From Candidatus Woesearchaeota archaeon (GTDB taxonomy: Archaea; Nanobdellota; Nanobdellia; Woesearchaeales; UBA10216): 64,000 nt of DNA. The translations under genes were made by a program, and so were the position numbers. The stretch spans positions 16,687 through 80,686 of the forward strand of contig JACPBS010000010.1 of the NCBI GenBank assembly GCA_016180195.1, in the 5' to 3' direction. The first letter of the stretch is position 1. Each line of letters starts with the position of its first letter. Positions 10,573 through 54,900 of this stretch are shown here, piece after piece. The notes under the pieces were generated by a model that was not told the DNA's origin, ran no database searches, and saw only the letters and a program-made list of their open reading frames with translations.

Positions 10573-10773
10573 GGTGTAGCGGAAAAAGAGGAGGTATTTA
10601 AAAGTTATGAAAACTTGGGCTGTTAAGTCTGTTGGATGAATATTCAAAAAAAAAATTAGAATACTTTTAGGATTCTAAGAATAATAACAAAGATCATGGC
10701 AATTGATAAAACAACTATTATGTTAAAGTTTTTCTTCAATATATCAGTTAGAACTTCCCTGATGGTGGGCATT

Positions 10774-13816: not shown

Positions 13817-14304
13817 AGGACAAGCTGCTCATGGACAGTCTTGTAGGTGTGAAGCTCTTTCTTGTCAAACCATAGGTTGATCTCGTGTTCACTGTCTTCC
13901 TTGTCAGAAGATGCATGGATAACATTTTTTACCGGGGATTTTCTGCTATCAGCATGTTCGTAGCTTACATGGCTGAAATCCCCTCTTATTGTGCCCGGAA
14001 GTGCTGCTTTTGGTTCAGTTGATCCTGTTAGCTTCCTGACGTTTTCTATTGCGTTGGCGCCTTCAAGCACGATTGCAACTACAGGCCCTGAGCTGATGAA
14101 TTCAACCATCTGCTGCCTCACGTGGTCTCCCCTTCTTTTCGCAAGATCTTCGGTGTAATGCCTGAGTGCAAATGATTTGTCTGCCCATTGCATCTTCATG
14201 CCCACTATTTTCAGCCCTGCATCCTCGAATTTTGATACGATCCTGCCAATCAGGCATCGCTGGACGCCGTCGGGCTTTATGAGAACCAATGTCCTTTCAA
14301 TCAT
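13813..14304 (-). CDS. ndk: Nucleoside diphosphate kinase
   Basis: LIKPDGV, NVIHASS(D) active-site His motif. About 160 aa. Confidence 0.9.
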
Positions 14305-19664: not shown

Positions 19665-20612
19665 ATGAAGTATTCTGGTTTCGCGCTTCTTGCACTTATT
19701 GGTTTGGCGATTGTCCAGGTTGCGTTTATTGCGCAGTCTGAAAATAAGGCAACCGTTGAAATTAGGCAGGAGGAATATTCAGGCAAAGAAGAGGCTTTAG
19801 AAAGCCGTTCCGCTGATCAGGTGGAAGTCAACGAAACACTGGTTGAGGTAGCGCATGAGGTCAGGAAGACCCTTGTAATCCATAGGAAAAAGGGGCAGAG
19901 TGAAACTGTCAGTACGGTTACTGGTTCGGTGATTGAGATACAGGCGCCAGTATCCTCGGGCGTTCAGCCAATGCAGTTTCCTGACCTTTCACCTGCAATG
20001 GTGGGTGGTAGTGCAGTTTACGCAGGGGAGCCCGTTACGTTTGCTGCGGTGATTGAAAACAATGGAAACGGCGTTTCCCTTGATTTCAACATAAAATGGG
20101 TTATGGATTCGAGTGTTGTTGGTTATGGAAGCGTTAGGGGGATTCCTGCAAATTCGCGGCGTTCACTTCAATTTCCCTGGGTTGCTACCCCGGGATATCA
20201 TAATATTACCTTGATCCTGGATACGGATGCCCATGTCAATGAGTCTGACGAGACAAATAACCATGCATCGTACATGTTCGGGGTGCTTGAGAGCAGGCTG
20301 CCTGATCTTTTGCCAACCCCTATCTCGGCTCGGATTGATGGGACTTCTGCGGAATTTGAGAGTGCAGTTTTGAATGATGGGCAAACAAATTCTTCCGCAT
20401 TCAACATAAGGTGGGTTCTTGATGGTTTAACAGTGGGCTATGGAAGCATTGGCCGGATTCCTTCCAGGTCTTCATCAATGGAAAACTCAAGGATAGGCAT
20501 TGAGGTTGAAAGGGGGCTGCATAACATCACATTCTTGCTTGATGCAGATAACCATATCCTGGAATCTGATGAAGCTAATAATCAGGTAAGCCTCCAGTTC
20601 CTGATAGAATAA
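19665..20612 (+). CDS. Secreted protein with two CARDB-like domains
   Basis: Signal peptide. Two repeats ending in the CARDB-typical ESDETNN / ESDEANN motif, each with an NITLILDTD-like core. Confidence 0.6.
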   Translation: MKYSGFALLALIGLAIVQVAFIAQSENKATVEIRQEEYSGKEEALESRSADQVEVNETLVEVAHEVRKTLVIHRKKGQSETVSTVTGSVIEIQAPVSSGVQPMQFPDLSPAMVGGSAVYAGEPVTFAAVIENNGNGVSLDFNIKWVMDSSVVGYGSVRGIPANSRRSLQFPWVATPGYHNITLILDTDAHVNESDETNNHASYMFGVLESRLPDLLPTPISARIDGTSAEFESAVLNDGQTNSSAFNIRWVLDGLTVGYGSIGRIPSRSSSMENSRIGIEVERGLHNITFLLDADNHILESDEANNQVSLQFLIE

Positions 20613-26578: not shown

Positions 26579-26659
26579 TTGTTGATATAAGCCTGATTAT
26601 GATTTAATGTTTTTGTATATACTAATAAATGTTTTAAATATCAATTGCTCCTTTTCTGC

Positions 26660-27823
26660 ATGCCCGTATACAGCCCGGAAGAAGACACTTATATGATTCT
26701 GGATGAGGTGAAGAAGCATGCATCCGGAAAAGTCCTGGAGATAGGAACCGGCTCAGGGATAATTGCGGTTGCTGCTGCTAAAAATAAGGATGTTGAATCA
26801 GTTACAGCTGTTGACATTGACAGGGAAGCCATTGAGGCTGCTTCAGGACTGGCTAAAAGGGAAAAAGTCAGGATCAGGTTCGTTCACGGCGACTTGTTCG
26901 CGAATATAAAAGGCAAATTTGACACGATAATTTTCAACCCTCCTTATCTCCCGCAGGATGAGGGAATTGAGGATGTGGCTATTTACGGTGGGAAAAAAGG
27001 GTATGAAACCATTGAAAGGTTTCTTGCCTCCAGCAGAAGTCACCTGGCTGAAAATGGAAAAATACTGCTTTTGTTCAGCAGCCTGACGAAAAAAGAAAGG
27101 GTCGATGCAATGATCGCCGATAGCTGCCTTGAATTTCAACCCTTGTCCGAAAAGCCCCTTTTTTTTGAAAGGCTTTATGTCTATCTTATTGAAAAATCGG
27201 CGCTGCTTAAGGAACTTGAGAATAAGGGGGTCCAGCATTTGAAAAGGTTTGCAAAGGGGCATAGGGGCATAATTTACTTGGGAAGGCTGAAAGGCAGGAA
27301 GGTCGCAGTAAAGGCAGAGCGAAAGCACATGGGCGCCAGATGCAGGGTATTGAATGAGGTGAGGTGGCTCGAGAGGCTTAACAAAAAAGGAATAGGTCCT
27401 AAGCTGTTGTTCGGAAGCAATGATTATTTTGTTTATGAGTTTGTTGAGGGCAGATTTATTGAGGATTTTATTAAGGAGAGCGGCAGGAAAAAGATTGTTG
27501 CCGCAATAAAAAATTTGCTGCATCAGTGCTACTTGATGGATGCGCTAAAGGTGAACAAGGAGGAGATGCATCATCCGGTGAAGCACATCATAGTTTCAAA
27601 GGGAAAGCCTGTCATGATAGATTTTGAAAGGTGCAGGTCAACGGAGAAGCCGAAGAATGTCACTCAGTTCCTTCAGTTTTTGTCCGGCGGCCATCTGGCA
27701 AGTCTGTTGCTAAAAAAAGGAATTAATTTTGACAAGAATGAATTAAGGGATATGGCGAAGGAATATAGCCTGAAAAGGGCAGGCATAAAAAGGCTGGTTG
27801 ATGGGATATTTCATGTATTTTGA
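26660..27823 (+). CDS. HemK/Mtq2-like N5-glutamine methyltransferase fused to a Bud32/RIO-type protein-kinase-like domain
   Basis: N-terminal half has VLEIGTGSGIIAV (motif I) and IIFNPPYLP (motif IV, NPPY). C-terminal half has GHRGIIYLG, VAVK and VMIDFE, which are Bud32/RIO-like. The usual HxD catalytic Asp is not apparent (MHHPVKHII). Confidence 0.65.
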   Translation: MPVYSPEEDTYMILDEVKKHASGKVLEIGTGSGIIAVAAAKNKDVESVTAVDIDREAIEAASGLAKREKVRIRFVHGDLFANIKGKFDTIIFNPPYLPQDEGIEDVAIYGGKKGYETIERFLASSRSHLAENGKILLLFSSLTKKERVDAMIADSCLEFQPLSEKPLFFERLYVYLIEKSALLKELENKGVQHLKRFAKGHRGIIYLGRLKGRKVAVKAERKHMGARCRVLNEVRWLERLNKKGIGPKLLFGSNDYFVYEFVEGRFIEDFIKESGRKKIVAAIKNLLHQCYLMDALKVNKEEMHHPVKHIIVSKGKPVMIDFERCRSTEKPKNVTQFLQFLSGGHLASLLLKKGINFDKNELRDMAKEYSLKRAGIKRLVDGIFHVF

Positions 27824-27990
27824 TATGTCAGAAATTGCAAATAAACCTAAAGGTTTATTGCACAATAAACGCCAAGCGTTTATTTGTGCTCTCAACGCAA
27901 ACTGTTCGCTTTAGCGCGCAGTAAGGACGAGCAATTTCTGATCATGAATCAAGAACACGCCCCGGGCTTTAGCCCGGCGGTTCTTGACAA

Positions 27991-28329
27991 TCAATTCAAT
28001 CCCAGGCTTGTTCTAAGTGCTTCATCAACCTTTTCCATAAAATCAACATCCAGTTTCCCTATTTTTTTCAGAAGTCTTGTTTTATCAACGGCTCTTATTT
28101 GGTTTAAAAGGGCTTTTGAATCCTTGTCAAGCCCAAAACCCTTTGGAATCAAAACTTCAAATGGATAAGAGTAATCAGTATTTTTTGAGCTTACAGGTGC
28201 AATTATTGTTGTATCGCTGTATTTGTTTCCAAAATCATTTTGAATAATTATTGCCGGCCTTGATTTATTAATCTCATGCCCCAAAGTGGGATTAAGATTC
28301 ACGATCCATATTTCTCCTCTATTTACCAT
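27991..28329 (-). CDS. mazF: MazF/PemK-family mRNA interferase toxin
   Basis: GEIWIVNLNPTLGHEINKSRPAIIIQND...IIAPVSS...LNQIRAVDKTRL is the classic MazF fold sequence. Confidence 0.8.
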   Translation of the reverse strand: MVNRGEIWIVNLNPTLGHEINKSRPAIIIQNDFGNKYSDTTIIAPVSSKNTDYSYPFEVLIPKGFGLDKDSKALLNQIRAVDKTRLLKKIGKLDVDFMEKVDEALRTSLGLN

Positions 28330-28547
28330 TCTTCAAACTCTGAAGAGGCAGGTTCCCATTCCTTCAAGGTTTCCAGGTTGGATTTCCCCAAGCTTTTGTA
28401 GCCAGTTATTAGTTCTTTTTTCAACTCCATTTTCTTCACCTTCTTAATCAGTCCTGAGATAATCTCGTCATAAGTCTCATTATCTTTTTTTAGCTCATCC
28501 AGGGCAAATTTGGTTTTATAGTGTATTTTCACTGTTGTAACATTCAT
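28323..28547 (-). CDS. Putative cognate antitoxin of MazF
   Basis: Small ORF immediately upstream, overlapping the toxin start by 7 nt. Start set at MNVTTVKIHY, right after a TATA box and direct repeats. Confidence 0.5.
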   Translation of the reverse strand: MNVTTVKIHYKTKFALDELKKDNETYDEIISGLIKKVKKMELKKELITGYKSLGKSNLETLKEWEPASSEFEEW

Positions 28548-28569
28548 GGTATACTTTAGGTATACTTTT
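28548..28569 (-). promoter_or_regulatory. Tandem direct repeat (GGTATACTTT x2, containing the GTATAC palindrome) between the TATA box and the antitoxin start; candidate autoregulatory operator
   Basis: Repeat seen directly. The TATA-like box catataaa lies just upstream on the minus strand. Confidence 0.35.
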
Positions 28570-28690
28570 GCATATAAAAATATTTTCATTTCGAATTGCA
28601 GATTAATAAACATTAGCCAAAAAAAACCGTAAATTTGGGCTATGGAATCGGAAAAGCTTTTAAAAATGAAAACCAGTTTTTCATTCCTTC

Positions 28691-28999
28691 ATGAAAATGA
28701 CCTTCAACCGGAAAGTATACTGCCTTTGCAGGAAAATACCGAAAGGAAAAGTGACGACCTACAAGATTGTTGCAGAAAAGCTGGGCACAAAAGCGTACCG
28801 CGCAGTTGGCAATGCGTTAAACAAAAATCCGGATTCAACCACAGTTCCATGCCATCGCATTGTAGGAAGTGATGGACACCTGACAGGATTTGCAAGAGGG
28901 ATAAGAAAGAAGAAAGGGATGCTGGAAAAGGAAGGGATAAAGATAACCTGTTTTAAAGTCATGGAATTGGAAAAACATGTTTTCAGGTTCGATTTCTGA
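28691..28999 (+). CDS. ogt: Short MGMT/Ogt-family protein (DNA-binding domain with active-site Cys)
   Basis: VTTYKIVAEKLGTKAYRAVGNALNKNP...VPCHRIVGSDGHLTGF carries the PCHR motif. Confidence 0.7.
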   Translation: MKMTFNRKVYCLCRKIPKGKVTTYKIVAEKLGTKAYRAVGNALNKNPDSTTVPCHRIVGSDGHLTGFARGIRKKKGMLEKEGIKITCFKVMELEKHVFRFDF

Positions 29000-30315: not shown

Positions 30316-31251
30316 TTATGCTTCCCTTTTCTTCTTGGTCTTCTTTATCTCCCTTTCAAGCTTCAGCTTGTCCAGGAGTTCCTTGTACCTGTTCCTTATT
30401 GTTACCTCTGTTACGCCTGCAACATCCGCTACCTCTCTTTGGGTTCTTTTTTCTCCGTGTATGAGTGCGCTAACGTATAGTGCCGCTGCTGCAATTCCGG
30501 TTGGCCCCCTTCCTGATGTTAGCTCTGCTTTCTGTGCCTGTTCCAGTATCTCTATAGATCTTGATTGTGTTTCTGCGCTTAGCTTTAATGCAGATGAGAA
30601 TCTTGGTATGTAGTCTGCCGGGTTGCTGGGCAGTATGCTTATCCCTAGTTCCCGGGTTACAAACCTGTAAGTCCTTCCTATTTCCTTCTTGTCTATTCCG
30701 CTTGCCTCGGCAAGCTCATCAAGTGTCCTCGGTACCTCATGCCTTCTGCATGCTGCATAAAGAGCGCCTGCAACTACTGATTCCATTGACCTGCCTCTAA
30801 CAAGTCCCCTTTGGACTGCAAGTGTATAGACACGTGCGCTTTCCTCCTCAACAGATCTTGGAAGCTTGAGGTATGATGCCACCCTTTGAAGTTCGCCAAG
30901 CGCGAGCTTAAGGTTCCTTTCTATGGCTGTGCTTATCCTGTATTGCCATTTCCTGAGCCTGAAGAACTTGTTCCTGTTTTTGCCGCCGAGCTTGCTCAGG
31001 TCTGCTTTTCTCCCAACTTCTGTTCCAAGGCCTTGGTCATACTGCGTGTATGTCATGGGCGCGCCTGCACGCCTCCTCTTGTCTCCTGACTCTGAGTCGA
31101 ATTCGCGCCATTCCTGGCCGAAATCAACCATCCTGTCTTCTACAACAAGTCCGCAGTCCTTGCAGATAACCTCTCCCTTCTCCTTGTTCCAGAAAAGATT
31201 AATGCCCCCGCACTCAGGGCATTTCTTCACGTAGTCAGGCATTTGATCCAA
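30316..31251 (-). CDS. tfb: Transcription initiation factor IIB (TFB)
   Basis: N-terminal zinc ribbon CPECGG...CKDCG. B-finger and linker. Two cyclin-fold repeats. Confidence 0.9.
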   Translation of the reverse strand: MDQMPDYVKKCPECGGINLFWNKEKGEVICKDCGLVVEDRMVDFGQEWREFDSESGDKRRRAGAPMTYTQYDQGLGTEVGRKADLSKLGGKNRNKFFRLRKWQYRISTAIERNLKLALGELQRVASYLKLPRSVEEESARVYTLAVQRGLVRGRSMESVVAGALYAACRRHEVPRTLDELAEASGIDKKEIGRTYRFVTRELGISILPSNPADYIPRFSSALKLSAETQSRSIEILEQAQKAELTSGRGPTGIAAAALYVSALIHGEKRTQREVADVAGVTEVTIRNRYKELLDKLKLEREIKKTKKKREA

Positions 31252-31372: not shown

Positions 31373-32938
31373 GTGTTGTTCATGTTTGCAAGAAAAATGG
31401 CAATTAGGTATTTCAATACGAATGAAGCTATCTTTGGATCTTCACGATACGTTAAAACCGTTGGATTGGCTGAGGCCATTATACGTGGTCAGGCCCCTGA
31501 TGGCGGATTGTACATGCCTGCACAGTTCCCCGCCATAAGTCCGGAGAGGATAGCATTGATGGGCGGGATGCGCTACCCTCAGATTTTCGTTGAGACGATG
31601 AAGGATTTTTTTTATGAAACCCTGCATCAGGAAACGCTTGAGCGTATTGCCCATGAAGCTTATGATTTTGAGCCTTATGTCGAGCATGTTTCAGGGATTG
31701 ACAAGATAGTGAGGCTGGATGAGGGCCCTACTGCTGCTTTCAAGGATTATGCTGCAGTTGTGTTTTTCAGGATTGTTAAGGCGATTGTTGAGCAGGAGCA
31801 GGGGTTTAAAGGTTCGCTCATAAGCAGGGCAAATGACAGGTTGGATGATCTTGTTTACGGGCAATCTCTCAAGGATATTGACCTTTTTACCTATTTTACA
31901 GCAACTTCAGGCGATACTGGAAGCGCAACCGGAATGGGATGCGTGGATGTGCCTGGGATGATGATGTTCATTTTCTACTCTTCCAGGATTGGGGAACATG
32001 TCAGCGATACGCAGGCAAGGATGATGGATTTCATCGGGAAGAACGTGTATGTTATAAGGGCTGACACTGATTTTGATGGCTGTGACCTGATTTCCAAGAC
32101 CCTCCAGATGGATCCTGATCTTGCATTCATGCACAAGTCAACGGCTAATTCAGTGAGCTTGGGGAGGCTTCTTCCTCAGGTTGCATATTATTTCTATGCA
32201 TATTCAAGGGTTGCTGAGAACGGGGAAGAAATCAGGGTGTCTGTTCCATCAGGAAATTTCGGGGACGCTATGGCGGGCTTGTTTTCCATGAAAATGGGGC
32301 TTCCTATAAAGCTGATAGTTGGGGTGAACGAGAATGACGTGTTCGAACGATTCATTAGGACAGGAATGTATGCCCCTTCTGAATCCACCAAGCCATGCCA
32401 TTCGAACTCCATGAATGTGGGTTGGCCCAGTAATGTGAGAAGGGTTTTTAACCTGTATGGGGGGCAGCTGGTTGAGGGAAAAGACCCTGAAACAGGGAAA
32501 AGAATAGTCTATTCTATGAAGATTCCTGATCTTAAAAGGTTAAGGGCAGACATTGCAGCATATGCGATAACCGATGATGAAACCGATGGGCTGATCTGGG
32601 AGTTTTACAATAAGCGCCATTTGATAGATGGACGGATTCATTCAACAATCGAGCCTCATGGGGCTGTTGCTTGGGGTGCTGCAATGAAGTTCAGGCAGCA
32701 AACAGGGTATCTGGGCAGGATAATTTGCTTTGAGACAGCTCATCCCGGAAAATTTCCTGAAAGGCTTCGCACGTTCGGGATCGAGCCTGAACTGCCTGAG
32801 TGCATTTCAACAGTTTTAGAGCTTCCTGAAGGCCGGAGAAGGTTTTGGACCGTGAATAATTATCAGGAGGCAAAAGACCTTGTTGTGCAGATTTACCGTG
32901 TAGAAAGGGGAAGGCAGGGTCTAAAGCCTGTTATCTAG
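31373..32938 (+). CDS. thrC: Threonine synthase, long E. coli/yeast-type
   Basis: PLP-Lys motif PTAAFKDYAA, TATSGDTGSA, SVPSGNFGD, HSTIEPHGAVAW and ETAHPGKF. These are collinear with E. coli ThrC. Confidence 0.8.
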   Translation: MLFMFARKMAIRYFNTNEAIFGSSRYVKTVGLAEAIIRGQAPDGGLYMPAQFPAISPERIALMGGMRYPQIFVETMKDFFYETLHQETLERIAHEAYDFEPYVEHVSGIDKIVRLDEGPTAAFKDYAAVVFFRIVKAIVEQEQGFKGSLISRANDRLDDLVYGQSLKDIDLFTYFTATSGDTGSATGMGCVDVPGMMMFIFYSSRIGEHVSDTQARMMDFIGKNVYVIRADTDFDGCDLISKTLQMDPDLAFMHKSTANSVSLGRLLPQVAYYFYAYSRVAENGEEIRVSVPSGNFGDAMAGLFSMKMGLPIKLIVGVNENDVFERFIRTGMYAPSESTKPCHSNSMNVGWPSNVRRVFNLYGGQLVEGKDPETGKRIVYSMKIPDLKRLRADIAAYAITDDETDGLIWEFYNKRHLIDGRIHSTIEPHGAVAWGAAMKFRQQTGYLGRIICFETAHPGKFPERLRTFGIEPELPECISTVLELPEGRRRFWTVNNYQEAKDLVVQIYRVERGRQGLKPVI

Positions 32939-34192
32939 GATTGCCTCGATTACTTTTTCAATGGATTCCGTGTTGCCATCCACCCTTAATATCTTTCCGT
33001 TCTTTGTTCCCGTAATTGGGGGCCTTCCTTTTTTGTATGAGTCTGTAAGTACAAGCACTGTTGGTTCATCAGGGTCTATTGTGTTTCCCACCAGCCTTCT
33101 TGCTGCAGCAACAACTGCCCCGCTTACAGGCCCCGGATGAAGGTCTGTGTAGATTGATATCAGCATCATGCTCTTGCGTATCTCACTATCGTCAACAGCT
33201 GATGCTGTTCCTTCTGTTTTTTGTATGGTTTCCAGAACCTCTATGCCATTTGCCGGATCACCCACTGACAAGGTTTCAGCCAGTGATTTCTCAGAGGGCT
33301 TTACCGGGATAATTCTTAATTTTCCTGTTTGGCGATATTTTTCCCAGGAGCTAACGATTGGGCTGCATTTGGAGTTCTGGACTGCATGCATACTTGTTTT
33401 AAGTTCTCCAATAAGCCCTGCTTTCTGGAATTCCTCAAGCCCCCTGTATATTTGCCACAATGAAAGTCCTGCAGCTACAGGATAGACGATGTTTCCAGGG
33501 GCTTTCCACCCAAGCTGCTCTGCTATTTCGAACCCGATCGTCTTTGACCCTTGTGAATATATGGGTCTTAATTGCGAGTTGACCCACGCAACACCATTGC
33601 GTATCATATCATTTTCAAGAAGTATTCTTTCCAGCAACCCGCTCACTGCAGAGTAATTTTCATCAACAACAATGACGTATGCTCCGAAAGATTCTGCCTT
33701 CCTAATCAGTTCCTCTTCAGCGCCTGAATGTAGGAGCACGATTGACTTGAGGCCTATTTGGTCAGCCTTGGCTGCAACCGCGGATGAAAGGTTGCCTGTT
33801 GAAGTGCCTCCAAGTGCCCTATAATTATATCCGGAAGAATTGAATTCAATGACCTTTTGCCCGGCAACATCAACACCTCGGTCCTTGAATGTGCCTGTGC
33901 TTGGCTCATCTTCATCTTTTATGTAAAGCCTGTTTGATCCTATTGCCTTCCCCAGTCTTTGCGCCCTGGTTAAAGTTGTGAATCCCACAATTGAATCTGG
34001 GACTGAGTCTGAAGGCAGGAAATCATGGTAGCGATACATGCTTGTCGGGCCTTCCTGTATCCGTGATCTGCTTATCCGGCCCGTTTCATAAAAAGGCACA
34101 TAGGGGGCCATGCAGCAATTGCTTGTATTAACCGGAGCGAATGGAATGCGATCGCCGCAGGAATAGCATTCAAGCCCTTTTTGCAAATCCAT
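32921..34192 (-). CDS. Threonine synthase, short archaeal/Bacillus-type with an N-terminal zinc-ribbon
   Basis: STGTFKDRG PLP motif on a fold-type II core. N-terminal CYSCGD...CC ribbon. The longest ORF begins at a TTG overlapping the next gene, so an internal Met start was chosen. Confidence 0.7.
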   Translation of the reverse strand: MDLQKGLECYSCGDRIPFAPVNTSNCCMAPYVPFYETGRISRSRIQEGPTSMYRYHDFLPSDSVPDSIVGFTTLTRAQRLGKAIGSNRLYIKDEDEPSTGTFKDRGVDVAGQKVIEFNSSGYNYRALGGTSTGNLSSAVAAKADQIGLKSIVLLHSGAEEELIRKAESFGAYVIVVDENYSAVSGLLERILLENDMIRNGVAWVNSQLRPIYSQGSKTIGFEIAEQLGWKAPGNIVYPVAAGLSLWQIYRGLEEFQKAGLIGELKTSMHAVQNSKCSPIVSSWEKYRQTGKLRIIPVKPSEKSLAETLSVGDPANGIEVLETIQKTEGTASAVDDSEIRKSMMLISIYTDLHPGPVSGAVVAAARRLVGNTIDPDEPTVLVLTDSYKKGRPPITGTKNGKILRVDGNTESIEKVIEAILDNRL

Positions 34193-34322
34193 GTGAATAG
34201 GTTTTCGGCAAGCCATTAAATAATTTCCTGCATCATTTATTCCAGTAAGAATATCTGGCGTGTTAGTAAGCGACAAAGTACTGTGCGCAAAACATATATA
34301 ACTGAAAATAAAAACGCAAGGT

Positions 34323-36230
34323 ATGTCAAAGGCATATTTTGCTGAGCACATGGGGAAGGATGATTTCCTGAAGCTGGCAGTGAAGTTTAATCCGAATGCA
34401 AATGTGAATCTTATTGGCAAGGCTTTTGATTTCGCTGAGCAGAGCCATCGTGGCCAGAAGAGGCTTTCTGGAAGGGATTATTTCCTTCATTGCAAGGAAG
34501 TTGCGTACATGCTTGTTAAGCTGAGGCTGGATACAGCCACGATTTGTGCAGGACTGCTCCATGATGTTCTTGAGGATTCTGACAGGAAGGGTGAAGAGAT
34601 CAGGAGAACTTTCGGCGAGGAAATCCATTATCTTGTTGTTGCCCTGACCAAGACGAAGAACATAAGCTTGCAGGCAAGCGATGAGGAAAGGGCGGAAAAC
34701 ATCAGGAAGGTTCTTCTTGCATCTATCAAGGATATAAGGGTGATTTTCATCAAGCTTGCTGACAGGCTCCATAATATGCGCACCCTTAAGTATCAGCCTT
34801 ATGATAAGCAGGTTGCTGTTTCAAGGGAGACCCTTGATATCTATGTTCCGATTGCGTATAAGCTTGGTATGTACAGGATAAAGTCTGAGCTTGAAGATCT
34901 GTGCCTTAAGCATCTTAACCCTTCTGTGTATATGGAGCTGAAGGTGAGGATTGACAAGAAGAAGGAGGAGAGGGAGCAGGAGGTTAAGTCTGTGATCAAG
35001 ACTGTGAAGAACATTCTAAGTTCAAGGGGGATTAAGGCAAAGATCAGCGGGAGGGCTAAGAATTTTTTCAGCATCTACAAGAAGATGCTCAGGAAAGGTG
35101 TCTCGTTTGAGGAGATTCACGACCTGTCCGCGATAAGGATCATTGCTGATAATCCTGATGACTGTTACAGGATTCTCGGCATAATCCATTCGACTTGGAC
35201 TCCTTTGGTCAAGAGGTTTGATGATTATATCGCATTTCCGAAGCCGAACATGTACCAGTCACTCCATACAGAGGTTTTGATCAACAAGAAGCCTGTTGAG
35301 GTTCAGATCAGGACTTGGAAGATGCATCACATTGCCGAAGAGGGGTTTGCCGCTCATTGGAGGTATAAGGATACGGAGAGGGATAAGAGGTTCGATCGGA
35401 AAATAGCGTGGCTCAAGCAGATTCTGGAATGGAGGATGTCCTCAAATGCCAAGGAATTCCTGGAGAACCTTAAGATTGATCTTTTCAAGGACGAGATTTA
35501 CGCTATCACCCCAAAAGGGGATCCTATATCGCTTCCCGAGAAGGCAACTCCGGTTGATTTTGCCTTCGCTGTTCATACGGATATAGGCAACCGCTGTGTC
35601 AGGGCCAAGGTGAATAATGCAATCGTTCCTTTGGATCATGAGCTCAAAAGTGGCGATGTTGTTGAGATAATAACTTCAAAGAATGCCGTTCCTTCAAGGA
35701 ACTGGCTGAAGTTCGTGAAGACAACCTTGGCTAAGAGCAAGATAAGGCACGGGCTTGGTATTCTGCTTCCTGAAGCTCAGTCTGAAAAGGAAATTGCTGA
35801 TGAGGAGCAGGTGATCTCAAGGATTGATTTTGAGAAGAGCTCCATGCTGAAGCTTTCCAGGTGTTGCCTGCCCAGGTATGGTGACCAGTTAACAGGCTAC
35901 AGGATGAAGGATGGTAAGATTGCTGTTCATAAGGCAGGCTGTGATAATTTCAGGCAGCTTGATTCAGGCAGGAAGATGTTGCTGGGTTGGAAGGGCATGG
36001 AGAGCTCGGGGACCGTGAAGCTCCGTGCAGAGGTGATTGAGAGCAGTGGGATGTTCCAGGAGGTTCTTGGTTCGCTTACGAGCAGCGGTGTAAAGATAGA
36101 ATCAATCCGTGCAAAGACGAGCAAGAACAGGCTGTTGATATTGCTCGAAGTGAAGCCTGGAAGCGAGTTGGGAAAGGCGATTGACACCCTAAAAAAGGTT
36201 GAGAACGTGATTGAGGTCAGGATAGAATAG
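34323..36230 (+). CDS. Full-length RelA/SpoT homologue (HD hydrolase + (p)ppGpp synthetase + TGS + ACT)
   Basis: HD motif (HRGQKR...LLHDVLED). Synthetase motifs (RAKNFFSIYKKM, YIAFPKPNMYQSLHT, EVQIRTWKMHHIAEEGFAAHWRYK). TGS (IYAITPKGD) and a C-terminal ACT. Confidence 0.85.
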   Translation: MSKAYFAEHMGKDDFLKLAVKFNPNANVNLIGKAFDFAEQSHRGQKRLSGRDYFLHCKEVAYMLVKLRLDTATICAGLLHDVLEDSDRKGEEIRRTFGEEIHYLVVALTKTKNISLQASDEERAENIRKVLLASIKDIRVIFIKLADRLHNMRTLKYQPYDKQVAVSRETLDIYVPIAYKLGMYRIKSELEDLCLKHLNPSVYMELKVRIDKKKEEREQEVKSVIKTVKNILSSRGIKAKISGRAKNFFSIYKKMLRKGVSFEEIHDLSAIRIIADNPDDCYRILGIIHSTWTPLVKRFDDYIAFPKPNMYQSLHTEVLINKKPVEVQIRTWKMHHIAEEGFAAHWRYKDTERDKRFDRKIAWLKQILEWRMSSNAKEFLENLKIDLFKDEIYAITPKGDPISLPEKATPVDFAFAVHTDIGNRCVRAKVNNAIVPLDHELKSGDVVEIITSKNAVPSRNWLKFVKTTLAKSKIRHGLGILLPEAQSEKEIADEEQVISRIDFEKSSMLKLSRCCLPRYGDQLTGYRMKDGKIAVHKAGCDNFRQLDSGRKMLLGWKGMESSGTVKLRAEVIESSGMFQEVLGSLTSSGVKIESIRAKTSKNRLLILLEVKPGSELGKAIDTLKKVENVIEVRIE

Positions 36231-36277
36231 TTTTATTTGATTAACTTTATAAAAAGGCTTGTTTTTTCATTTGGTCA

Positions 36278-37507
36278 ATGTCAGACAATGTTCAGCCGGA
36301 AGTCAATATAGGCATGGTAGGCCATGTGGATCATGGTAAGACTACGTTGACTGAGTCCCTGACTGGAAAGTGGACTGATACTCACAGCGAGGAGATAAGG
36401 CGAGGTATAACTATCAGGCTGGGGTATGCAGACTCTGCTTTTTTCAAGTGTGAAAAATGCCCTGAGCCTGATTGCTATTCAACCGTTCCTGTTTGCAATT
36501 CCTGTGGTTCCAAGTCTGTTTTTCTTAGGAAGGTCAGTTTTATTGATGCGCCTGGGCACGAGAGCCTGATGGCGACGATGCTTTCAGGTGCAGCGATTAT
36601 GGATGGGGCATTGCTGCTTGTTGCCGCAAATGAGCCATGCCCGCAGCCCCAGACCAGGGAGCATCTTACAGCGCTTCAGATCATCGGCGTAAAAAACATC
36701 GTGGTGGTGCAGAACAAGATTGACATCGTTTCAATGGGCGAGGCTTTGAAGAATCATGATGAGATCAAGGCTTTTCTTAAAGGCACTGGTTTTGATGATG
36801 CCCCTATTGTTCCGATTTCTTCTCAGCAAAGAATCAATGTTGATGCGTTGATTGATGCCATTCAGAAGACCATTCCAACACCTTCAAGGGATTCATCAAA
36901 GCCCCCGTTAATGTTTGTTGCGAGGTCTTTTGATATCAACAGGCCAGGTATTAATCCCCTTGAGATGTCAGGTGGTGTTTTGGGGGGGTCTGTCAAGCAG
37001 GGCATTTTGAAGGTTGGTGATTCGGTTGAGATAAGGCCTGGCAGGCGTTTGGAGCGCGCAGGGAAGACCATTTGGCAGCCCATTTCAACCAAGATAGTGG
37101 ATCTGAAGACAGGCGGTGAAAGCGTTCAGTCTGTAGGTCCTGGGGGTAGTATTGGGGTCATGACCCTGCTTGATCCAAGCATAGTTAAGTCAGACGCGCT
37201 TTCCGGTTCTGTTTTGGGAACTGATGTTTTGCCTGCTGTCTGGAATGATCTTAGTCTTGATGTTTTCCTGCTGGAAAGGGTTGTGGGGGCAAAGGATAAG
37301 CTTGTTGTTGACCCGATCAGGCTTGGCGAGAACCTTATGCTGAATGCCAATTCGGCCGCAACAGTCGGGGCTGTGATTGAGCTTCAGAAAGGAGGCATTA
37401 CCTGCAGGCTTAAGCTCCCTGTGTGCGCAGACAAGGGCTCCAGGGTTACCATTTCCAGGCTTATTGGCTCAAGATGGAGATTGATTGGTTACGGGATTAT
37501 TAAATAG
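36278..37507 (+). CDS. eif2g: Translation initiation factor 2 gamma subunit (aIF-2gamma)
   Basis: GHVDHGKTT and NKID G-motifs. Zinc-ribbon insert CEKC...CNSC. Domains II and III. Confidence 0.9.
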   Translation: MSDNVQPEVNIGMVGHVDHGKTTLTESLTGKWTDTHSEEIRRGITIRLGYADSAFFKCEKCPEPDCYSTVPVCNSCGSKSVFLRKVSFIDAPGHESLMATMLSGAAIMDGALLLVAANEPCPQPQTREHLTALQIIGVKNIVVVQNKIDIVSMGEALKNHDEIKAFLKGTGFDDAPIVPISSQQRINVDALIDAIQKTIPTPSRDSSKPPLMFVARSFDINRPGINPLEMSGGVLGGSVKQGILKVGDSVEIRPGRRLERAGKTIWQPISTKIVDLKTGGESVQSVGPGGSIGVMTLLDPSIVKSDALSGSVLGTDVLPAVWNDLSLDVFLLERVVGAKDKLVVDPIRLGENLMLNANSAATVGAVIELQKGGITCRLKLPVCADKGSRVTISRLIGSRWRLIGYGIIK

Positions 37508-41333: not shown

Positions 41334-42079
41334 TCTGCAATGAGTGCGCGCCGCTTTTCTTTGGCGACCCTGTGAAGATTGTTATCGCGGTTTCATCGCT
41401 GGCTGTTGCCCTTCTGACCTTTTTGCTTATCCTGAAAAGGGACCTTTCTTATGGGGTCAGGGTGTTTTTGATTTATCTTCACGTGTTCTCGCTTGTTTTC
41501 CCTTTTGTTTTTTATCTTTTTTTCAGCGGGTGCAGCACACTTTTTTCGGGGTGCAGCAAGATTGTTCCTGTGATTTACATGCTGCTGATAACTGGCGTTA
41601 TTTCTGCCATAATCGGCTCTGTTTGCGCGCCAATCGTGTTCATGTGGAGAAGCTCGAGGTGCAGGCTCAATGATCGGGGGATTTCAAGATTTGTATGCAG
41701 GGAATCGGGTGTTGCCGGAATAAGGCCGCCATCGCTTTTCATTGTTGACTCGGCAAGTCCCTTTGCCTTCTCTTTTTCGAACATAAGGCCTGTGATTTTT
41801 GTTTCAGTCGGTCTTCTAGACCTGCTTGGGAGGAAGGAGCTTGAGGCCGTTTTGCTGCATGAGATCATGCACATCAGGAATGGTGCTTCGATTTTCAGGT
41901 TTTCTGCTTTTTTCATGAGGGTGTTCTCCCCCCTTTCTATGTTTGCTTCCCTTGGTCGCGAGCTGGATGAGGAAGAGCTCGGCGCTGACAGGTATGCGTG
42001 CCTGAGGCAGGGCACTTCAAGATTTGTTGAATCTGCAAAAAGGAAGATTGACCTGTTTTTTTACTGGAGGAAAATATAA
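41330..42079 (+). CDS. BlaR1/MecR1-like M56 zinc-metalloprotease membrane protein
   Basis: Four TM helices. HExxH (LLHEIMHIRN) in the cytoplasmic loop. Overlaps the repressor gene stop. Confidence 0.65.
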   Translation: MICNECAPLFFGDPVKIVIAVSSLAVALLTFLLILKRDLSYGVRVFLIYLHVFSLVFPFVFYLFFSGCSTLFSGCSKIVPVIYMLLITGVISAIIGSVCAPIVFMWRSSRCRLNDRGISRFVCRESGVAGIRPPSLFIVDSASPFAFSFSNIRPVIFVSVGLLDLLGRKELEAVLLHEIMHIRNGASIFRFSAFFMRVFSPLSMFASLGRELDEEELGADRYACLRQGTSRFVESAKRKIDLFFYWRKI

Positions 42080-42083
42080 ACTG

Positions 42084-43175
42084 ATGAGGAAATCTGTTTA
42101 CCTGGTCCCGTTTGCAGTTATATTTTTCCTATTCGCTCTGGCTTCGTTTTTCCGTGACTCCATTGATGTTTCGCTGATTTCGAATTTGAGGAATATTTCT
42201 TTTGCTATAGCTTTTCTCGGCGGTGTTATGAGCATATTCTCGCCTTGCTCGATTGCGGTTGTTCCTGCTTTTGTGTCCTATGCATTCAAGGAAAGGCGGG
42301 ATGTTGGAAAGATGACCCTTGCATTTTTTGTCGGTTTTTCCCTGGCTTTTGTAACCCTTGGGTTGCTGATTGCTTACCTCGGTAAGATATCTTTTGTGTA
42401 TTTCCAGAACACATCCTCTGACCTTATCCTTGCCATTGGCTTCCTTTTGGTGATATTTGGGTTTATGGCATTTCTCGGCAGGGGTTTTACTTTCATCAGT
42501 ATCGGGATGAGGCCCGGGCATGACGTGGCGGGTGTTTTCCTTTTCGGCATTCTTTTTGCAGTCGGTTGGAGTGCCTGCAGCGGGCCTATCATCGCGGGCA
42601 TAATTTCTGTTGCAGCAGCATTCAGCAATTATGCGTATTCCGCTCTTCTTCTTTTTTTCTATTCGCTTGGGGTTGCTGTTCCCTTATTCTCGATGGCCTT
42701 CGCATATGACAGGTATAATCTCGCTGAGAATCCTTTTGTGAAGGGCAGGTATTTCGGTTTTTCTGTTCTCGGAAGGGATTTCATGGTTCATTCGACGAAT
42801 GCTGTTGCAGGCATCATGCTTGCAGGGCTTGGTCTCCTGTTTATCGTCTATAGGGGGACGACTTTTCTTACAGGCCTTGATCTTTTTGGCAGGTTTTTGC
42901 TTTTTGTTTTTCTGCTGCTGTGCGCCTATGTTGTGTATGAGCTTGCAGCCAAGAGGCTTGTTTCAGGGGCTAATGGCCGGCATGTCGCGTTTGTCCTGTT
43001 GTTTTTTGTTTCCCTTTCGGTTTTCATGTACATAAACTCTAATTTTATTGTGACAACTGTTGGTTATTCCGAGCTTTTTGACAGGATAATGCTTCAGAAC
43101 AGCGCAGTTTTCAATGTTGTTGGGGTGGTGCTTCTTGCTTTTTTTGTTTTTCTTATCCTGAGGGGAAAATATTAA
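42084..43175 (+). CDS. CcdA/DsbD-family transmembrane thiol-disulfide electron transporter
   Basis: AFLGGVMSIFSPCSIAVVPAFVSY (DsbD_2 signature, Cys in TM1) and a second Cys in TM4 (WSACSGPI). Confidence 0.7.
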   Translation: MRKSVYLVPFAVIFFLFALASFFRDSIDVSLISNLRNISFAIAFLGGVMSIFSPCSIAVVPAFVSYAFKERRDVGKMTLAFFVGFSLAFVTLGLLIAYLGKISFVYFQNTSSDLILAIGFLLVIFGFMAFLGRGFTFISIGMRPGHDVAGVFLFGILFAVGWSACSGPIIAGIISVAAAFSNYAYSALLLFFYSLGVAVPLFSMAFAYDRYNLAENPFVKGRYFGFSVLGRDFMVHSTNAVAGIMLAGLGLLFIVYRGTTFLTGLDLFGRFLLFVFLLLCAYVVYELAAKRLVSGANGRHVAFVLLFFVSLSVFMYINSNFIVTTVGYSELFDRIMLQNSAVFNVVGVVLLAFFVFLILRGKY

Positions 43176-44120: not shown

Positions 44121-44846
44121 ATGCTTCCTTATTTCACCTTATCATCTTTTAAGCTGGGATTTATCACGATTCATGTCTGGGGGATTTTTGCTGCGCTTGG
44201 TTTCATTGTTGGGATGTTTTTTGCTTCAAGGGAGGCTGCGAAAAGGGGGCTGGACCCTGATGCGATCCATGATTCTGCTCCATGGGTGATGCTTGGCGCC
44301 ATTGTGGGGGCGCGGATTGTTTTCCTTCTGGAGAACCCCTGGGCTGTTTCAGGCTTTTTTGATATTTTCAGTGTTTGGAATGGGGGCCTTGCTTTTCATG
44401 GGGGCTTTTTTGGGGGAGTCGGTGTTTTTTTGGCTTATATGAGGCACAAGGGCTTGAGTGTCTTAAGATATTCAGATGCGATTGCTCCTGGCATAGCTAT
44501 AGGCCATGCGGTTGGCAGGTTAGGATGCCATGTAACTGGCATGCATGTTGGCAAGGAGTCTTCGCTTCCGTGGTCAATATTTCATGAGGGGGCTGCCAGG
44601 CATCCGGTTATTCTGTATGAGATTGCGGCTTTGCTCCTCATTTTTTTTGTTCTTTTGTGGGTGAGGGAAAGGAAATTCTCCCGTGTTGATGGGCGTGTTT
44701 TCTTCATGTACATTGCATTGTATAGCTTCGCAAGGTTTTTCATTGAGTTTTTCAGGACAGACCCTGTTTATTTTGGCTTTTCAGCAGCTCAATTTATTGT
44801 CGTTGCCGTTTTTGCTGCTTCCCTGTTTTTCCTGTTTAGAAAATAG
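44121..44846 (+). CDS. lgt: Prolipoprotein diacylglyceryl transferase
   Basis: WNGGLAFHGGFFGG (Lgt GGLxxHGG motif). GRLGCHVTG is a degenerate Lgt signature. C-terminal ARFFIEFFRTDP...SAAQ. Confidence 0.75.
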   Translation: MLPYFTLSSFKLGFITIHVWGIFAALGFIVGMFFASREAAKRGLDPDAIHDSAPWVMLGAIVGARIVFLLENPWAVSGFFDIFSVWNGGLAFHGGFFGGVGVFLAYMRHKGLSVLRYSDAIAPGIAIGHAVGRLGCHVTGMHVGKESSLPWSIFHEGAARHPVILYEIAALLLIFFVLLWVRERKFSRVDGRVFFMYIALYSFARFFIEFFRTDPVYFGFSAAQFIVVAVFAASLFFLFRK

Positions 44847-51947: not shown

Positions 51948-54900
51948 ATGGAAGGGCTTGATTTTAAGACTACTGCTGATATCAAGGTTCCACAGAGGAT
52001 TGTGGACCAGGTGATTGGTCAGGAGGACGCTGTCAGGACTATTAGGAAGGCTGCAAAGCAACGGAGGCATGTTCTTCTCATAGGCAATCCTGGAACTGGC
52101 AAGTCAATGTTGGGGATGGCCCTTGCTGAGCTTCTTCCTAAGGAGAAGCTTGTTGATGTAATTTCCTTTTCAAACCCTAATGACGAGAACCAGCCTTTGA
52201 TCAGGACGGTTCCGGCTGGCCAGGGCAGGGAGCTCGTGACTAAGTCCAGGCTTGAGGCGACGAATGTCTTCAAGTACCAGAACGCAATTATGCTTGCTCT
52301 TCTCATAGTGACGATCATTTCGCCATGGTGGGCATTTAACCATTATACAAACGTTGGGGGTTATCTTCTTGGCGGTTTGATGTTCATCGCTTTTTTCCTT
52401 GGAGGGATGGTTTTTTTCGCGAGCTTCATCCTGTTCATTAATTTTGGCAGGAAGGCTGATAACAGGGGCAGGATTCCGAAGGTCATAGTTGATAATTTCA
52501 GCAAGAAGCAGGTTCCTTTTTTTGACGCAACCGGGGCTCATGCAGGTGCATTGCTTGGCGATGTATTGCATGATCCTTTCCAGTGTATCCCTGGCGACGA
52601 ACTTATTCATTTGCCTAATGGAAAGCCGGTTAAGATCAAGGATCTGGTTGATCCATTTTTAGATTCAGATGGCGAGAAGGAACTTCGTGATCAGGATCAA
52701 TTCGATGTGTTGTCCGGCATAAAATCTGGTTTCGGATTCACTTCTGCGAAAGTTTTTAGGGTTTTCAGAAGATTTTTTGATGATGAACTGATTGTTTTGG
52801 AGACTTCGAGGGGTTATAAGATCAGGGTTACTCCGAACCATCCTGTTGCCATTTATTCGCCTGCGGGCCATATTGACTTCATTCCTGCAGCCTCAATTTC
52901 AAGAAAAATGAGATGTGTTGTTCCAAACAGGATTCCTATCACGGCTAGTGAAAGGTTAAGCCCTTCTTTTATTAATTTCCTTGCAGAAACCTTGTCAGAT
53001 GGCTGCATAAGGGAGAGGTCTGTTGCTTTTAAAGTTAGAACAAAATGGAAGGCAGAGGCATATAAAGCCACGATCAAGGCTATTGGTCATGTTCCGAGAA
53101 TAATAAACAGGGGCGGCGATATTGAAATTTATTTAAATTCTGCAGAACTTGTAAGAACCCTTTTAAAAATGGGGGTAAAAAAGAATGGGAAAAAAGAACT
53201 TCCTGAAGTATTATTTGGCTTGCCAAAAGAGGGCGTATTTAGATTTTTGGCCCGTTACATCTCGATAGATGGATATGTGGGTAAGCAGGGTCAGTTTGAA
53301 ATAGTTTCCAAGGAGCTTATTCCAGATATTACTGCGCTCCTCCTTAAGATAGGTGTTAGGGCAAAAATAAGGCATAGGCCTGACCACGGGTTTGGGTTGG
53401 CAAAGGGCATAATTCAGCCACGAATTATCTTTTCAGATTTTGAGTTTGCAGGAGTTTATAGGGAGTTGACGATTAATCCAACTCATAAGGCAAACCTGGA
53501 TTCCTATTTGAGTTCGACCAGTTTCAGGCATGTTTCGAAAGATGATGTGATTCCTGTTGAATTTGGCTGGATGGAAAGGATCAGGCTAAAGGCCGGGCTT
53601 AGTAAGGGTAAAACTCATGATGCATATTATGCCTTAAACCCGGAAGTCCCAAGCCATTCGGCTCCAACACGGCGTTTGCTTCAAAAGGTTTTGGATAGGT
53701 TCCTTTCTTTTACCAACGATGAAGACCTTTTTAGGCTGCGTGATGTTGTGCAGGGCACTTTTGATTTTGATGAAATTGTTTCCGTCTCAAAGGAGAAATT
53801 CTTGGGGCATGTTTATAATCTAACCACCAGTACTGGTACTTATGTGGTTGCGCAGTTGCTCACCCATAATTCCGGCGGCCTTGGAACGCCTGCCCATGAG
53901 AGGGTTGTTGCTGGAATGATCCATAAGGCGCACATGGGTGTTCTTTTTATTGATGAGATAGCAACGCTTCAGCCTTCGACCCAGCAGGAGCTTTTGACTT
54001 CGCTGCAGGAAGGCAAGTATTCCATAACAGGTCAGAGTGAGAGGTCTGCTGGCGCCATGGTCAGGACTGAGTCAGTTCCGTGTAATTTCATTCTTGTTGC
54101 TGCCGGGAATATAGAGACAATCAGGCAGATGCACCCTGCATTAAGGTCAAGGGTTAGGGGTTATGGGTATGAGGTTTTTATGAAGGAGACCATGCCTGAT
54201 ACTGAGGAAAACAGGCTTAAGATCGCGAATTTTGTTGCTCAGGAGGTGTCCAAGGACAAGAAGATACCTCATTTCAGCAGGGATGCTGTGGATCAGATAA
54301 TAATTGCTGCCAGGAGGGCTGCTAACAGGAAGGGTCATTTGACGCTTCATCTTAGGGAGCTTGGAGGGCTTGTCCGTGCAGCAGGTGACCTGGCTACAGA
54401 GGAAAGTTCCAAGTTTGTTGAAAAGAAGCACGTCCTCAATGCGAAGAAGATGGCCAGAACCCTTGAGCAGCAGATCGCTGACAAGATAATTGAGCACAGG
54501 AAGGAGTATGAGGTCATTATTACCTCTGGCAAGAAAATTGGCAGGGTGAATGGGCTTGCGGTTCTTGGGGGCGGCACATCTTATTCAGGTCTTATCATGC
54601 CTATCGAGGCCGAGGTCACGCCTGGCGGGGAGGCTAAGGAAATTATTGCTACAGGCAAGCTGGGGGAGATTGCCAAAGAGGCTGTGTTGAATGTTTCTGC
54701 TATCATAAAGAAGTTTTTCGGAGAGGATATCAGGAAGACCCGTGATATCTATGTCCAGTTCCTCCAGACCTATGGGGAGGGTGTTGAGGGGGATTCTGCA
54801 AGCATCGCGGTGGCAACAGCAATAATCTCTGCATTGAAGGGCATCCCGGTAAAGCAGGATGTTGCGATGACTGGCAGCCTTTCTGTTCGCGGAGAGGTGC

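Follow-up and report, generated by a model that had tools for sequence, protein, structure and literature searches.

The closest described counterparts of the gene considered here are the long RelA/SpoT homologues (RSHs) of bacteria, and the record of such proteins in archaea is short. A census of RSHs published in 2011 found only small single-domain forms in archaea and gave the lack of long RSHs as a trait of archaea (PMC3153485). A later survey put the share of genomes with RelA/SpoT at 69.0% for Diapherotrites, 41.7% for Woesearchaeota, 21.3% for Pacearchaeota and 19.0% for Nanoarchaeota. It predicted a bacterial origin for the RelA/SpoT of DPANN archaea, treating the matter in a single sentence with a tree in the supplement (Li et al. 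2021, PMC8407392). The alarmone itself, (p)ppGpp, went undetected in Haloferax and Sulfolobus (PMC8646023). In the literature that was searched there was no further work on DPANN alarmone enzymes, no characterised archaeal long RSH and no account of Helical-domain loss, motif conservation, synteny with transcription factor B (TFB), promoters or activity of archaeal Rel. To our knowledge (p)ppGpp has never been found in those cultivated archaea that have been surveyed. Here we describe a long, Rel-type RSH gene at 34323..36230 (+ strand) of a 64,000-nucleotide stretch of contig JACPBS010000010.1 (positions 16,687 to 80,686; assembly GCA_016180195.1) from a Candidatus Woesearchaeota archaeon; the whole stretch is referred to below as the window, and its own numbering is used. 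The product is probably a functional Rel-type bifunctional (p)ppGpp synthetase/hydrolase, the gene for which would have been acquired from bacteria once and inherited vertically since then.

The presence of an RSH in Woesearchaeota is not new. The protein is identical to GenBank MBI2133843.1, where it is already annotated by PGAP, and the 2021 survey had reported the family. An earlier interpretation of the window made without database searches (the sequence-only reading) had called long RSHs rare in archaea, and this is true outside DPANN (PMC3153485), but within that group, as the survey figures make clear, they are common and already on record. The present analysis adds four points: the Helical domain has largely been lost across the clade, the charge motif is a hybrid, the locus is conserved and linked to TFB, and the gene has a putative archaeal promoter.

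The open reading frame (ORF) starts with ATG and encodes 635 amino acids followed by a stop codon, with coordinates that match those of the sequence-only reading exactly. The four domains claimed in that reading were all recovered by a Pfam scan, each above its gathering score. These are, in order along the + strand, an HD hydrolase domain (HD_4; 34422..34871, residues 34-183, E=1e-44), a synthetase (SYNTH) domain (RelA_SpoT; 35049..35378, residues 243-352, E=2e-41), a TGS domain (35496..35687, residues 392-455, with a Pfam match over residues 392-451 at E=1e-20) and an ACT/RRM domain (35991..36227, residues 557-635). The ACT_4 match within the last of these (residues 564-633, E=1.5e-6) is marginal, scoring 29.2 bits against a cut-off of 27 bits; the domain E-values are nevertheless far past chance level. 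Between the TGS and ACT/RRM domains lie a remnant of the Helical (AH) domain (35688..35843, residues 456-507), made up of a conserved first helix and then a variable linker, and a zinc-finger or RIS domain (ZFD; 35844..35990, residues 508-556) with the ligands C514, C515, H536 and C540. The ZFD appears among the precomputed Pfam matches of the protein (PF28438, RelA_RIS) and can be aligned to the zinc-finger domains of mycobacterial and Escherichia coli RelA.

Assignment to the family is equally clear from the NCBIfam models. The protein scores 648.6 bits with TIGR00691 (spoT_relA), for which the cut-off is 499.2, and remains below the cut-offs of the RelA equivalog model NF008124 (384.5 against 728), the SpoT equivalog model NF008303 (473.1 against 947) and the small alarmone synthetase (SAS) model NF053588 (33.5 against 320). 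A small alarmone synthetase or hydrolase, which has a single catalytic domain and is without a C-terminal domain region (CTD), is ruled out by the presence of two catalytic domains and a CTD. A monofunctional RelA is ruled out by the intact HD motifs, the RFDD motif described below and the NF008124 score, and a SpoT of the gamma- and betaproteobacterial kind was rejected on its equivalog score. The best solved relative is the Rel protein of Bacillus subtilis (6yxa; E=3e-144), with approximately 50% identity over the N-terminal region and TGS. An AlphaFold2 model (pLDDT 83.1, pTM 0.66) displays a beta-alpha-beta-beta-alpha-beta arrangement over residues 565-634, in the ACT/RRM domain, and the top Foldseek matches of this model are ribosome-bound RelA (5iqr, the RelA-70S complex), B. 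subtilis Rel and full-length SpoT.

The hydrolase and synthetase catalytic motifs, which had been claimed from the letters of the sequence, were both found to be intact. In the HD domain the HDxxED and LADRLHN motifs retain H56, H80, D81, E84, D85, D147 and N151, and in the SYNTH domain the corresponding residues are G243-R-A-K246 (GRxK), the Mg2+ aspartate D267, the G-loop tyrosine Y311, H315 and the catalytic E326 and Q328 of the EVQIRT motif. Residue-level alignment to 6yxa equates H80 and D81 with H77 and D78 of B. subtilis Rel, D267, Y311 and E326 with D264, Y308 and E324, and H418 of the TGS domain with H420. In the B. subtilis enzyme the substitution D264G abolishes synthesis, H420 stacks on the CCA end of tRNA, and with H420E the deacylated CCA end is no longer recognised (PMC7797070). 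Conservation was assessed in an alignment of 62 members of the clade that are 48-76% identical to the window protein. Nineteen key residues (seven hydrolase, seven synthetase, H418 and four zinc ligands) are invariant or present in 61 of the 62: H56, H80, D81, E84 and D147 occur in every sequence and D85 and N151 in 61; R244, K246, D267, Y311, H315, E326 and Q328 occur in every sequence, as does H418; and the zinc ligands are found in 61 or 62, with several other ZFD positions also invariant. Mean conservation was highest in TGS (0.78), followed by SYNTH (0.75), the first post-TGS helix (0.74) and HD (0.71), with lower values for the ZFD (0.53), ACT/RRM (0.46) and the residual linker (0.34). 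Such a pattern is the mark of purifying selection, acting on the two activities as well as on the sensing of tRNA, and is not what a decaying transferred gene would be expected to give.

The same data bear on whether the enzyme might be effectively monofunctional in vivo, either as a SpoT-like housekeeping hydrolase for scavenging or destroying (p)ppGpp, such as alarmone taken up from neighbouring or host bacteria, or as a synthetase with a silent hydrolase. DPANN cells attach to other cells or live among them and carry many bacterial-derived genes (PMC8407392), the best full-length TM-score of the compact model (0.50, with 24% identity in the structural alignment) is to the SpoT structure 7qpr, and the ratio of two activities is something that sequence alone does not give. 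However, conservation across the 62 sequences is complete at the two active sites alike, with SYNTH at least as well conserved as HD, and the TGS histidine, which is needed only for switching between synthesis and hydrolysis, is invariant. The loss of one activity normally leaves decay of its motifs, as in the HD domain of RelA (PMC2666561). A monofunctional enzyme is in our opinion quite unlikely.

The synthetase domain does depart from characterised enzymes at its charge motif. In the window protein this reads R298-F-D-D301, which is neither the RXKD typical of bifunctional Rel nor the EXDD of RelA. The sequence-only reading had proposed that the acidic residue of the ExDD-equivalent motif be looked for; both aspartates are indeed there, but the motif as a whole is not a true EXDD and is better described as a hybrid of the two classes. 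Across the clade position 298 is arginine in 27 of 62 sequences and is otherwise variable, position 300 is aspartate in 41 and position 301 is aspartate in all. For mycobacterial Rel the summary of PMC2666561 describes charge motifs as tuning the Mg2+ response, the preference for GTP or GDP and the formation of pGpp, with catalysis being possible without them. Since the motif is non-essential for catalysis, RFDD provides no argument against activity. It does raise the question of whether the product is canonical (p)ppGpp, as an x-F-D-D enzyme could mainly make pGpp or another 3'-pyrophosphorylated nucleotide. The clade motif belongs to neither class, a swap of RXKD for EXDD in a bifunctional Rel gave pGpp and an altered GTP/GDP preference (again as summarised in PMC2666561), and one RSH of Clostridioides is reported to yield only pGpp. 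Against this, Y311, which stacks on guanine, is invariant, as are the residues of GRxK and EVQIRT, and this points to guanosine substrates; pGpp would in any case fall within the same alarmone family. A non-canonical product therefore amounts to a refinement and not to a different function; we regard it as unlikely.

A second departure from bacterial Rel concerns the Helical domain, a feature of the structural era that stands outside the classical HD/SYNTH/TGS/ACT definition. In B. subtilis Rel this domain comprises residues 470-583 (PMC7797070). The archaeal protein is some 80-100 amino acids shorter than a typical Rel and does not have a Helical domain of the usual length of about 110-130 amino acids. 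The linker between the end of TGS (PSRxW) and the CC motif of the zinc finger measures 51-57 amino acids in the archaeal clade as against 128-139 in bacterial Rel (n=31), and linker lengths among 170 RSHs fall into three classes of 34-61, 66-102 and 113-187 amino acids. It can be seen from the alignment that the archaeal proteins retain the first post-TGS helix, then show a gap of approximately 75 amino acids and can be aligned again from some twelve residues ahead of the CC motif; in the AlphaFold2 model only short helices are present between residues 459 and 499. The description of the protein as a full-length RSH thus stands as regards the four named domains but fails as regards the Helical domain, approximately 75 amino acids of which are missing throughout the clade. 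In B. subtilis Rel, TGS alone shows no stable tRNA binding whereas TGS together with the Helical domain does bind (PMC7797070), and the clade has therefore lost most of a domain that aids tRNA locking in bacteria.

This finding may favour an enzyme that is bifunctional but regulated off the ribosome, with the CTD sensing free deacylated tRNA, a small ligand (such as amino acids bound at ACT/RRM) or a partner protein. It would be in keeping with such a mode of regulation that B. subtilis TGS without its Helical domain does not hold tRNA stably (PMC7797070), that ACT/RRM and the ZFD are the least conserved of the domains, that archaeal ribosomes are unlike bacterial ones and that SpoT-type enzymes are reported to be under the control of protein partners. 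The zinc ligands and several further ZFD positions are invariant, however, and the ZFD/RIS is not known to have any role apart from binding of the ribosome at the A-site finger (PMC5829649). Moreover, the first helix of the Helical domain has been kept and conserved, and TGS is the most conserved domain of all. Off-ribosome regulation of a bifunctional enzyme seems to us somewhat doubtful on balance.

It was also necessary to consider whether the gene belongs to the archaeon at all, as long RSHs are overwhelmingly bacterial (PMC3153485) and the closest solved relatives of this protein are all bacterial, so that a bacterial RSH could have been joined to archaeal DNA through contamination or chimeric assembly. 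This explanation, which had been named beforehand as one that would undo the sequence-only reading, is refuted by assemblies, composition, promoter, synteny and the names of the homologues, and we consider it extremely improbable. The identical RSH protein and its neighbours came out of independent assemblies of four SRA runs, and an NCBI metagenome-assembled genome (MAG) contig of 102 kb likewise holds the gene (MBI2133843.1) among archaeal neighbours. The archaeal genes of the window include those for TFB, aIF-2gamma, an EF-2-type GTPase and the ribosomal proteins S7 and L7Ae, together with the further markers diphthamide synthase, ArgRS and a LonB protease with an archaeal LID domain and an intein. 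Composition is uniform over the window, and the RSH gene, with a GC content of 0.463 and a third-position value (GC3) of 0.572, lies inside the range of the core genes and fits the genes adjacent to it. An archaeal TATA box and no Shine-Dalgarno sequence are found upstream, and the synteny of TFB and RSH is held in five diverged relatives (both are described below). At least 120 homologues of 620-675 amino acids and 48-76% identity are from Candidatus Woesearchaeota or Nanoarchaeota wherever they are named, with no bacterial one among the matches listed. Rfam and tRNA scans of the window detected no tRNA, rRNA or Rfam family at gathering threshold and hence supplied no taxonomic marker of that kind. 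The host is a tiny-genome archaeon of the Woesearchaeota type and the RSH gene is real and resident in it. It is neither a contaminant nor degenerate. Its mere presence would come as no surprise to a specialist.

The origin of the gene was investigated by an exhaustive homologue search of 1.84 billion representative proteins, which gave 31,679 matches. Outside the clade of the query the best 'short' matches (a single aligned stretch) are 39-46% identical and the best 'long' matches (two stretches) 43-45%. All of the named long matches are bacterial (Mitsuokella, a Clostridia MAG, Caldatribacteriaceae and Deltaproteobacteria) and one named short match is from Nanoarchaeota. A search of contigs with the single RSH protein yielded 34 Rel genes from bacteria, mostly of Desulfobacterales, and a single archaeal relative; this search was biased by peptide patterns and was used as a bacterial comparison set, being unfit for judging distribution in archaea. 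A neighbour-joining tree was built from 170 RSHs over 617 columns with 200 bootstrap replicates. In this tree 31 short-linker sequences form a pure clade with the query, and an archaeal pair (P0122 and P0124) joins at its base; the contig of P0122 carries Orc1/Cdc6 and a TFIIS-type ribbon gene. The 33-member archaeal-type short-linker group was recovered exactly in 90 of the 200 replicates (45%) and with three or fewer intruders in 151. The deletion in the Helical domain is common to this group and is evidence for a single origin that does not depend on the tree. For the deepest members of the short clade the taxonomy comes from gene context only, and in two cases (L048 and L049) the genes nearby agree with an archaeal host without being decisive. 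A grouping of all short-linker RSHs into one clade was rejected, as P0229 and P0269 branch within the long forms of bacteria and seem to have arisen by deletions of their own, and the intermediate-linker forms P0158 and P0139 are in bacterial-type gene contexts. With the other short and intermediate forms nesting among bacteria or sitting in bacterial contexts (apt-rel-dtd, OmpA), it would appear that the region has been shortened independently in bacteria too.

A further RelA_SpoT protein was noted in one of the archaeal relatives. Contig L045 encodes, at 10088-10900 (- strand), a separate SAS-like protein of 270 amino acids consisting of RelA_SpoT only, approximately 2.5 kb from a short-linker long RSH. 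The contig is archaeal (two Orc1/Cdc6 genes, a TFIIS-type ribbon gene and ribosomal S2), and some archaea may carry more than one alarmone synthetase.

The position of the gene has been examined both in the window and in its relatives. The sequence-only reading had placed RSH between thrC and aIF-2gamma, and this was confirmed by Pfam and NCBIfam matches of the flanking genes. Immediately upstream is a thrC-like PALP gene (32921-34192, - strand, 423 amino acids as called) and beyond it a second thrC-like gene (31373-32938, + strand). The two differ, with one containing Thr_synth_N, PALP and THR4_C and the other being PRK08197-like, and they converge with an overlap of 18 bp at their 3' ends. 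A longer ORF of 499 amino acids, which extends over the start of RSH, is an artefact produced by listing ORFs mechanically. Downstream of RSH lies aIF-2gamma (36278-37507, + strand), which scores 613 bits with TIGR03680 against a cut-off of 514.5. Further upstream, all three assigned by Pfam, are TFB (30316..31251, - strand), with a Zn-ribbon and two TFIIB repeats, and, making up the upstream part (26645..28999) of a conserved block, an MTS-type methyltransferase gene (26645-27823, + strand) and an MGMT-like DNA_binding_1 gene (28691-28999, + strand).

A synteny table compiled with tblastn showed that the block MTS-MGMT-TFB(-)-RSH(+) is conserved in five relatives whose RSH identity ranges from 76% down to 54%. 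The pair of TFB and RSH, transcribed divergently, is present in L005, L040, L042, L043 and L044, with TFB being 90-99% identical. Among the relatives examined, the thrC-like pair between TFB and RSH occurs only in the window and in L043, the contig with the 76%-identical RSH. The gene 3' of RSH varies by lineage and may be aIF-2gamma, Fic, a glycogen phosphorylase-like gene or genes of unknown kind, with L040, L042, L043 and L044 all having something other than aIF-2gamma in that place. With the thrC insertion so restricted and the downstream gene so variable, the thrC and aIF-2gamma neighbours are incidental and the conserved partner of RSH is TFB. A functional meaning for the adjacency of RSH and aIF-2gamma was accordingly rejected, the arrangement being absent from all relatives examined and aIF-2gamma having a TATA box of its own.

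Several other features of these loci can be recorded. In two relatives, one marine and one from groundwater, a ribosomal L1-L10-P1 cluster lies just past the MTS-MGMT-TFB-RSH block. Within the window a PemK-family toxin gene and a small DUF7557 gene, likely to be a toxin-antitoxin pair, are inserted between the MTS and MGMT-like genes (27991-28613, - strand). In the marine Woesearchaeota contig L040 (9959-13160) a Fic-domain gene is found immediately 3' of RSH and a ParE toxin gene approximately 3 kb further on. Contig L005 (CAYJXD010000029.1) is labelled as uncultured Methanosarcinales, yet its TFB is 96% identical to that of the window, its genes are again ordered MTS-MGMT-TFB-RSH and its RSH, of the short-linker kind, is 67% identical; it is most likely from a Woesearchaeota-type DPANN genome and has been mis-binned or mislabelled.

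A putative archaeal promoter precedes the RSH gene at 34285..34301 (+ strand). It consists of a purine-rich stretch resembling a B recognition element (BRE), GCGCAAAA at 34285-34292, and a TATA-like box, ATATATAA at 34294-34301, which ends 22 nt before the ATG, and no Shine-Dalgarno sequence could be read upstream of that ATG. Boxes of the TTTAAAT type are present 22-35 nt upstream of the RSH start in L005, L040, L043, L044 and L045, and TATA-like boxes occur at this distance in six of seven archaeal loci. The position of the box would imply a leaderless mRNA or one with a very short leader, which fits archaeal transcription. The T-tract TTTTATTT directly follows the RSH stop codon and is itself followed by a second TATA-like box, TTTATAAAA at 36247-36255 (the two together spanning 36231..36255, + strand), 23 nt before the ATG of aIF-2gamma. 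The T-tract and the separate TATA box suggest that RSH and aIF-2gamma are probably transcribed from their own promoters. A scan for sigma-70 promoters and intrinsic terminators around RSH was uninformative, as it gave no more than chance would (4 promoter-like sites where 4.3 were expected, and 4 terminator-like sites where 3.5 were); the archaeal TATA boxes were read by eye.

Taken together, these observations are consistent with a history in which the ancestor of a large DPANN lineage of the Woesearchaeota/Nanoarchaeota type acquired a bacterial Rel gene, which would thereafter have been inherited vertically at a fixed position beside TFB and expressed from an archaeal promoter. The enzyme is predicted to make (p)ppGpp from ATP plus GTP or GDP and to hydrolyse it again in vivo. 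The hydrolase and synthetase states would be mutually exclusive and the switch between them would be under C-terminal control, with hydrolase-ON as the default state and synthetase-ON adopted once H418 of TGS detects the free CCA end of a deacylated tRNA, as in bacterial Rel. Such sensing would most likely take place on the archaeal ribosome with the ZFD and RRM acting as an anchor, although with a shortened Helical domain the locking of tRNA may be unlike the bacterial mechanism. Likely targets would be GTP-dependent translation factors and purine-nucleotide enzymes, and not RNA polymerase. The prerequisites for switching of the Rel type are present at the level of the sequence, and it is from these that the activities, the dependence on the ribosome and the targets are predicted.

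A number of points weigh against this interpretation. The Helical domain, which in B. subtilis Rel is needed together with TGS for stable and specific tRNA binding (PMC7797070), is mostly missing, and the archaeal ribosome differs from the bacterial one, which makes ribosome-dependent activation uncertain; whether the truncated Helical region would still permit activation by ribosome and tRNA or is accompanied by regulation off the ribosome is the main uncertainty. As the x-F-D-D motif matches neither of the classes characterised in the summary of PMC2666561, neither the substrate preference nor the product (ppGpp, pppGpp or pGpp) can be predicted from it. The enzymatic function is itself a prediction for a domain of life in which no (p)ppGpp signalling is on record. 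As to the history of the gene, the neighbour-joining tree gives moderate support to a single archaeal group, and no specific bacterial donor is identifiable, the Rel proteins of Firmicutes, Atribacterota and Desulfobacterota all being about 43-45% identical.

The remainder of the window contains a variety of other genes. Bacterial-type envelope functions are represented by Lgt, the prolipoprotein diacylglyceryl transferase (44121-44846, + strand, E=9e-56), two adjacent MprF-like LPG_synthase_C genes (61923-63774, + strand), a DsbA-like thioredoxin (1929-2570, - strand) and a DsbD-like membrane protein (42024-43175, + strand); their presence in an archaeal contig fits earlier reports of extensive gene transfer between domains in DPANN. 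A 282-amino acid ORF at 57488-58336 (+ strand) has a partial match to the diguanylate cyclase domain GGDEF (E=8e-18), covering the first 89 of 161 profile positions and containing a degenerate 'GGSDEF'; it could be a further signalling gene of bacterial origin, or else a remnant without activity. Enzymes of c-di-GMP metabolism are unusual in archaea as well. The archaeal LonB protease (51948-55118, + strand, 1056 amino acids) is interrupted by its intein, with an Intein_splicing match at residues 223-641 between the halves of the AAA+ module. Large proteins with DUF11/CARDB repeats, probably with a surface or adhesion role, are encoded at 3369-6407 (- strand) and 19665-20612 (+ strand); surface proteins of this type are typical of episymbiotic DPANN cells. 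Within 10970-14304 (- strand) genes for nucleoside diphosphate kinase and adenylate kinase lie directly upstream of the EF-2-type GTPase gene, and ribosomal S7 (9973-10647) follows close by on the same strand, which places nucleotide metabolism beside translation-factor genes.

It is possible, and we put it forward tentatively, that Woesearchaeota-type DPANN archaea run a genuine (p)ppGpp stringent response, in which a Rel without most of its Helical domain would dock on the archaeal ribosome through its zinc finger and RRM, the invariant TGS histidine would read deacylated tRNA and the alarmone would act on translation GTPases and nucleotide enzymes. If so, the response would be the first case of alarmone signalling in Archaea, and the deletion seen throughout the clade would represent an adaptation of a bacterial stringent factor to the archaeal ribosome. 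The clade is abundant, appears to be under strong purifying selection at both active sites and in the tRNA-sensing domain, and has a protein short enough for easy expression, so that the family offers a practical entry point through which the question of archaeal alarmones is directly testable. With the greater part of its Helical regulatory domain gone, the family is also a natural experiment that bears on current models of how Rel is locked onto tRNA.

The RelA/SpoT proteins of DPANN reported previously (PMC8407392) and the Woesearchaeota proteins annotated by PGAP belong to the same gene family as the RSH described here. Of the long RSHs known outside archaea, the hydrolase-dominant SpoT of E. 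coli and Acinetobacter baumannii (7qpr) has the set of bifunctional motifs in common with it, but the SpoT equivalog model NF008303 scores far below its cut-off and structural alignment gives 24% identity. The monofunctional, ribosome-dependent RelA of E. coli (5iqr, 5kpv) shares the overall fold, being the top Foldseek match, is alignable over TGS and over the ZFD and RRM, and has in its EXDD both of the aspartates of the archaeal xFDD; it differs in that its HD domain is degenerate where that of the archaeal protein is intact, and in that the first residue of the motif is glutamate instead of arginine. Bifunctional Rel of Firmicutes, as represented by B. subtilis (6yxa, 6htq), Streptococcus equisimilis (RelSeq, 1vj7) and Staphylococcus aureus (7oiw), has the same order of domains, HD-SYNTH-TGS-(Helical)-ZFD-RRM/ACT, and the archaeal protein retains HDxxED, the equivalents of D264, Y308 and E324, the equivalent of H420 and the zinc ligands. 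In contrast to these enzymes, it is without approximately 75 amino acids of a Helical domain of about 114, carries RFDD in place of RFKD, and belongs to an archaeal host, with an archaeal ribosome and a putative archaeal promoter; its activity is a prediction.

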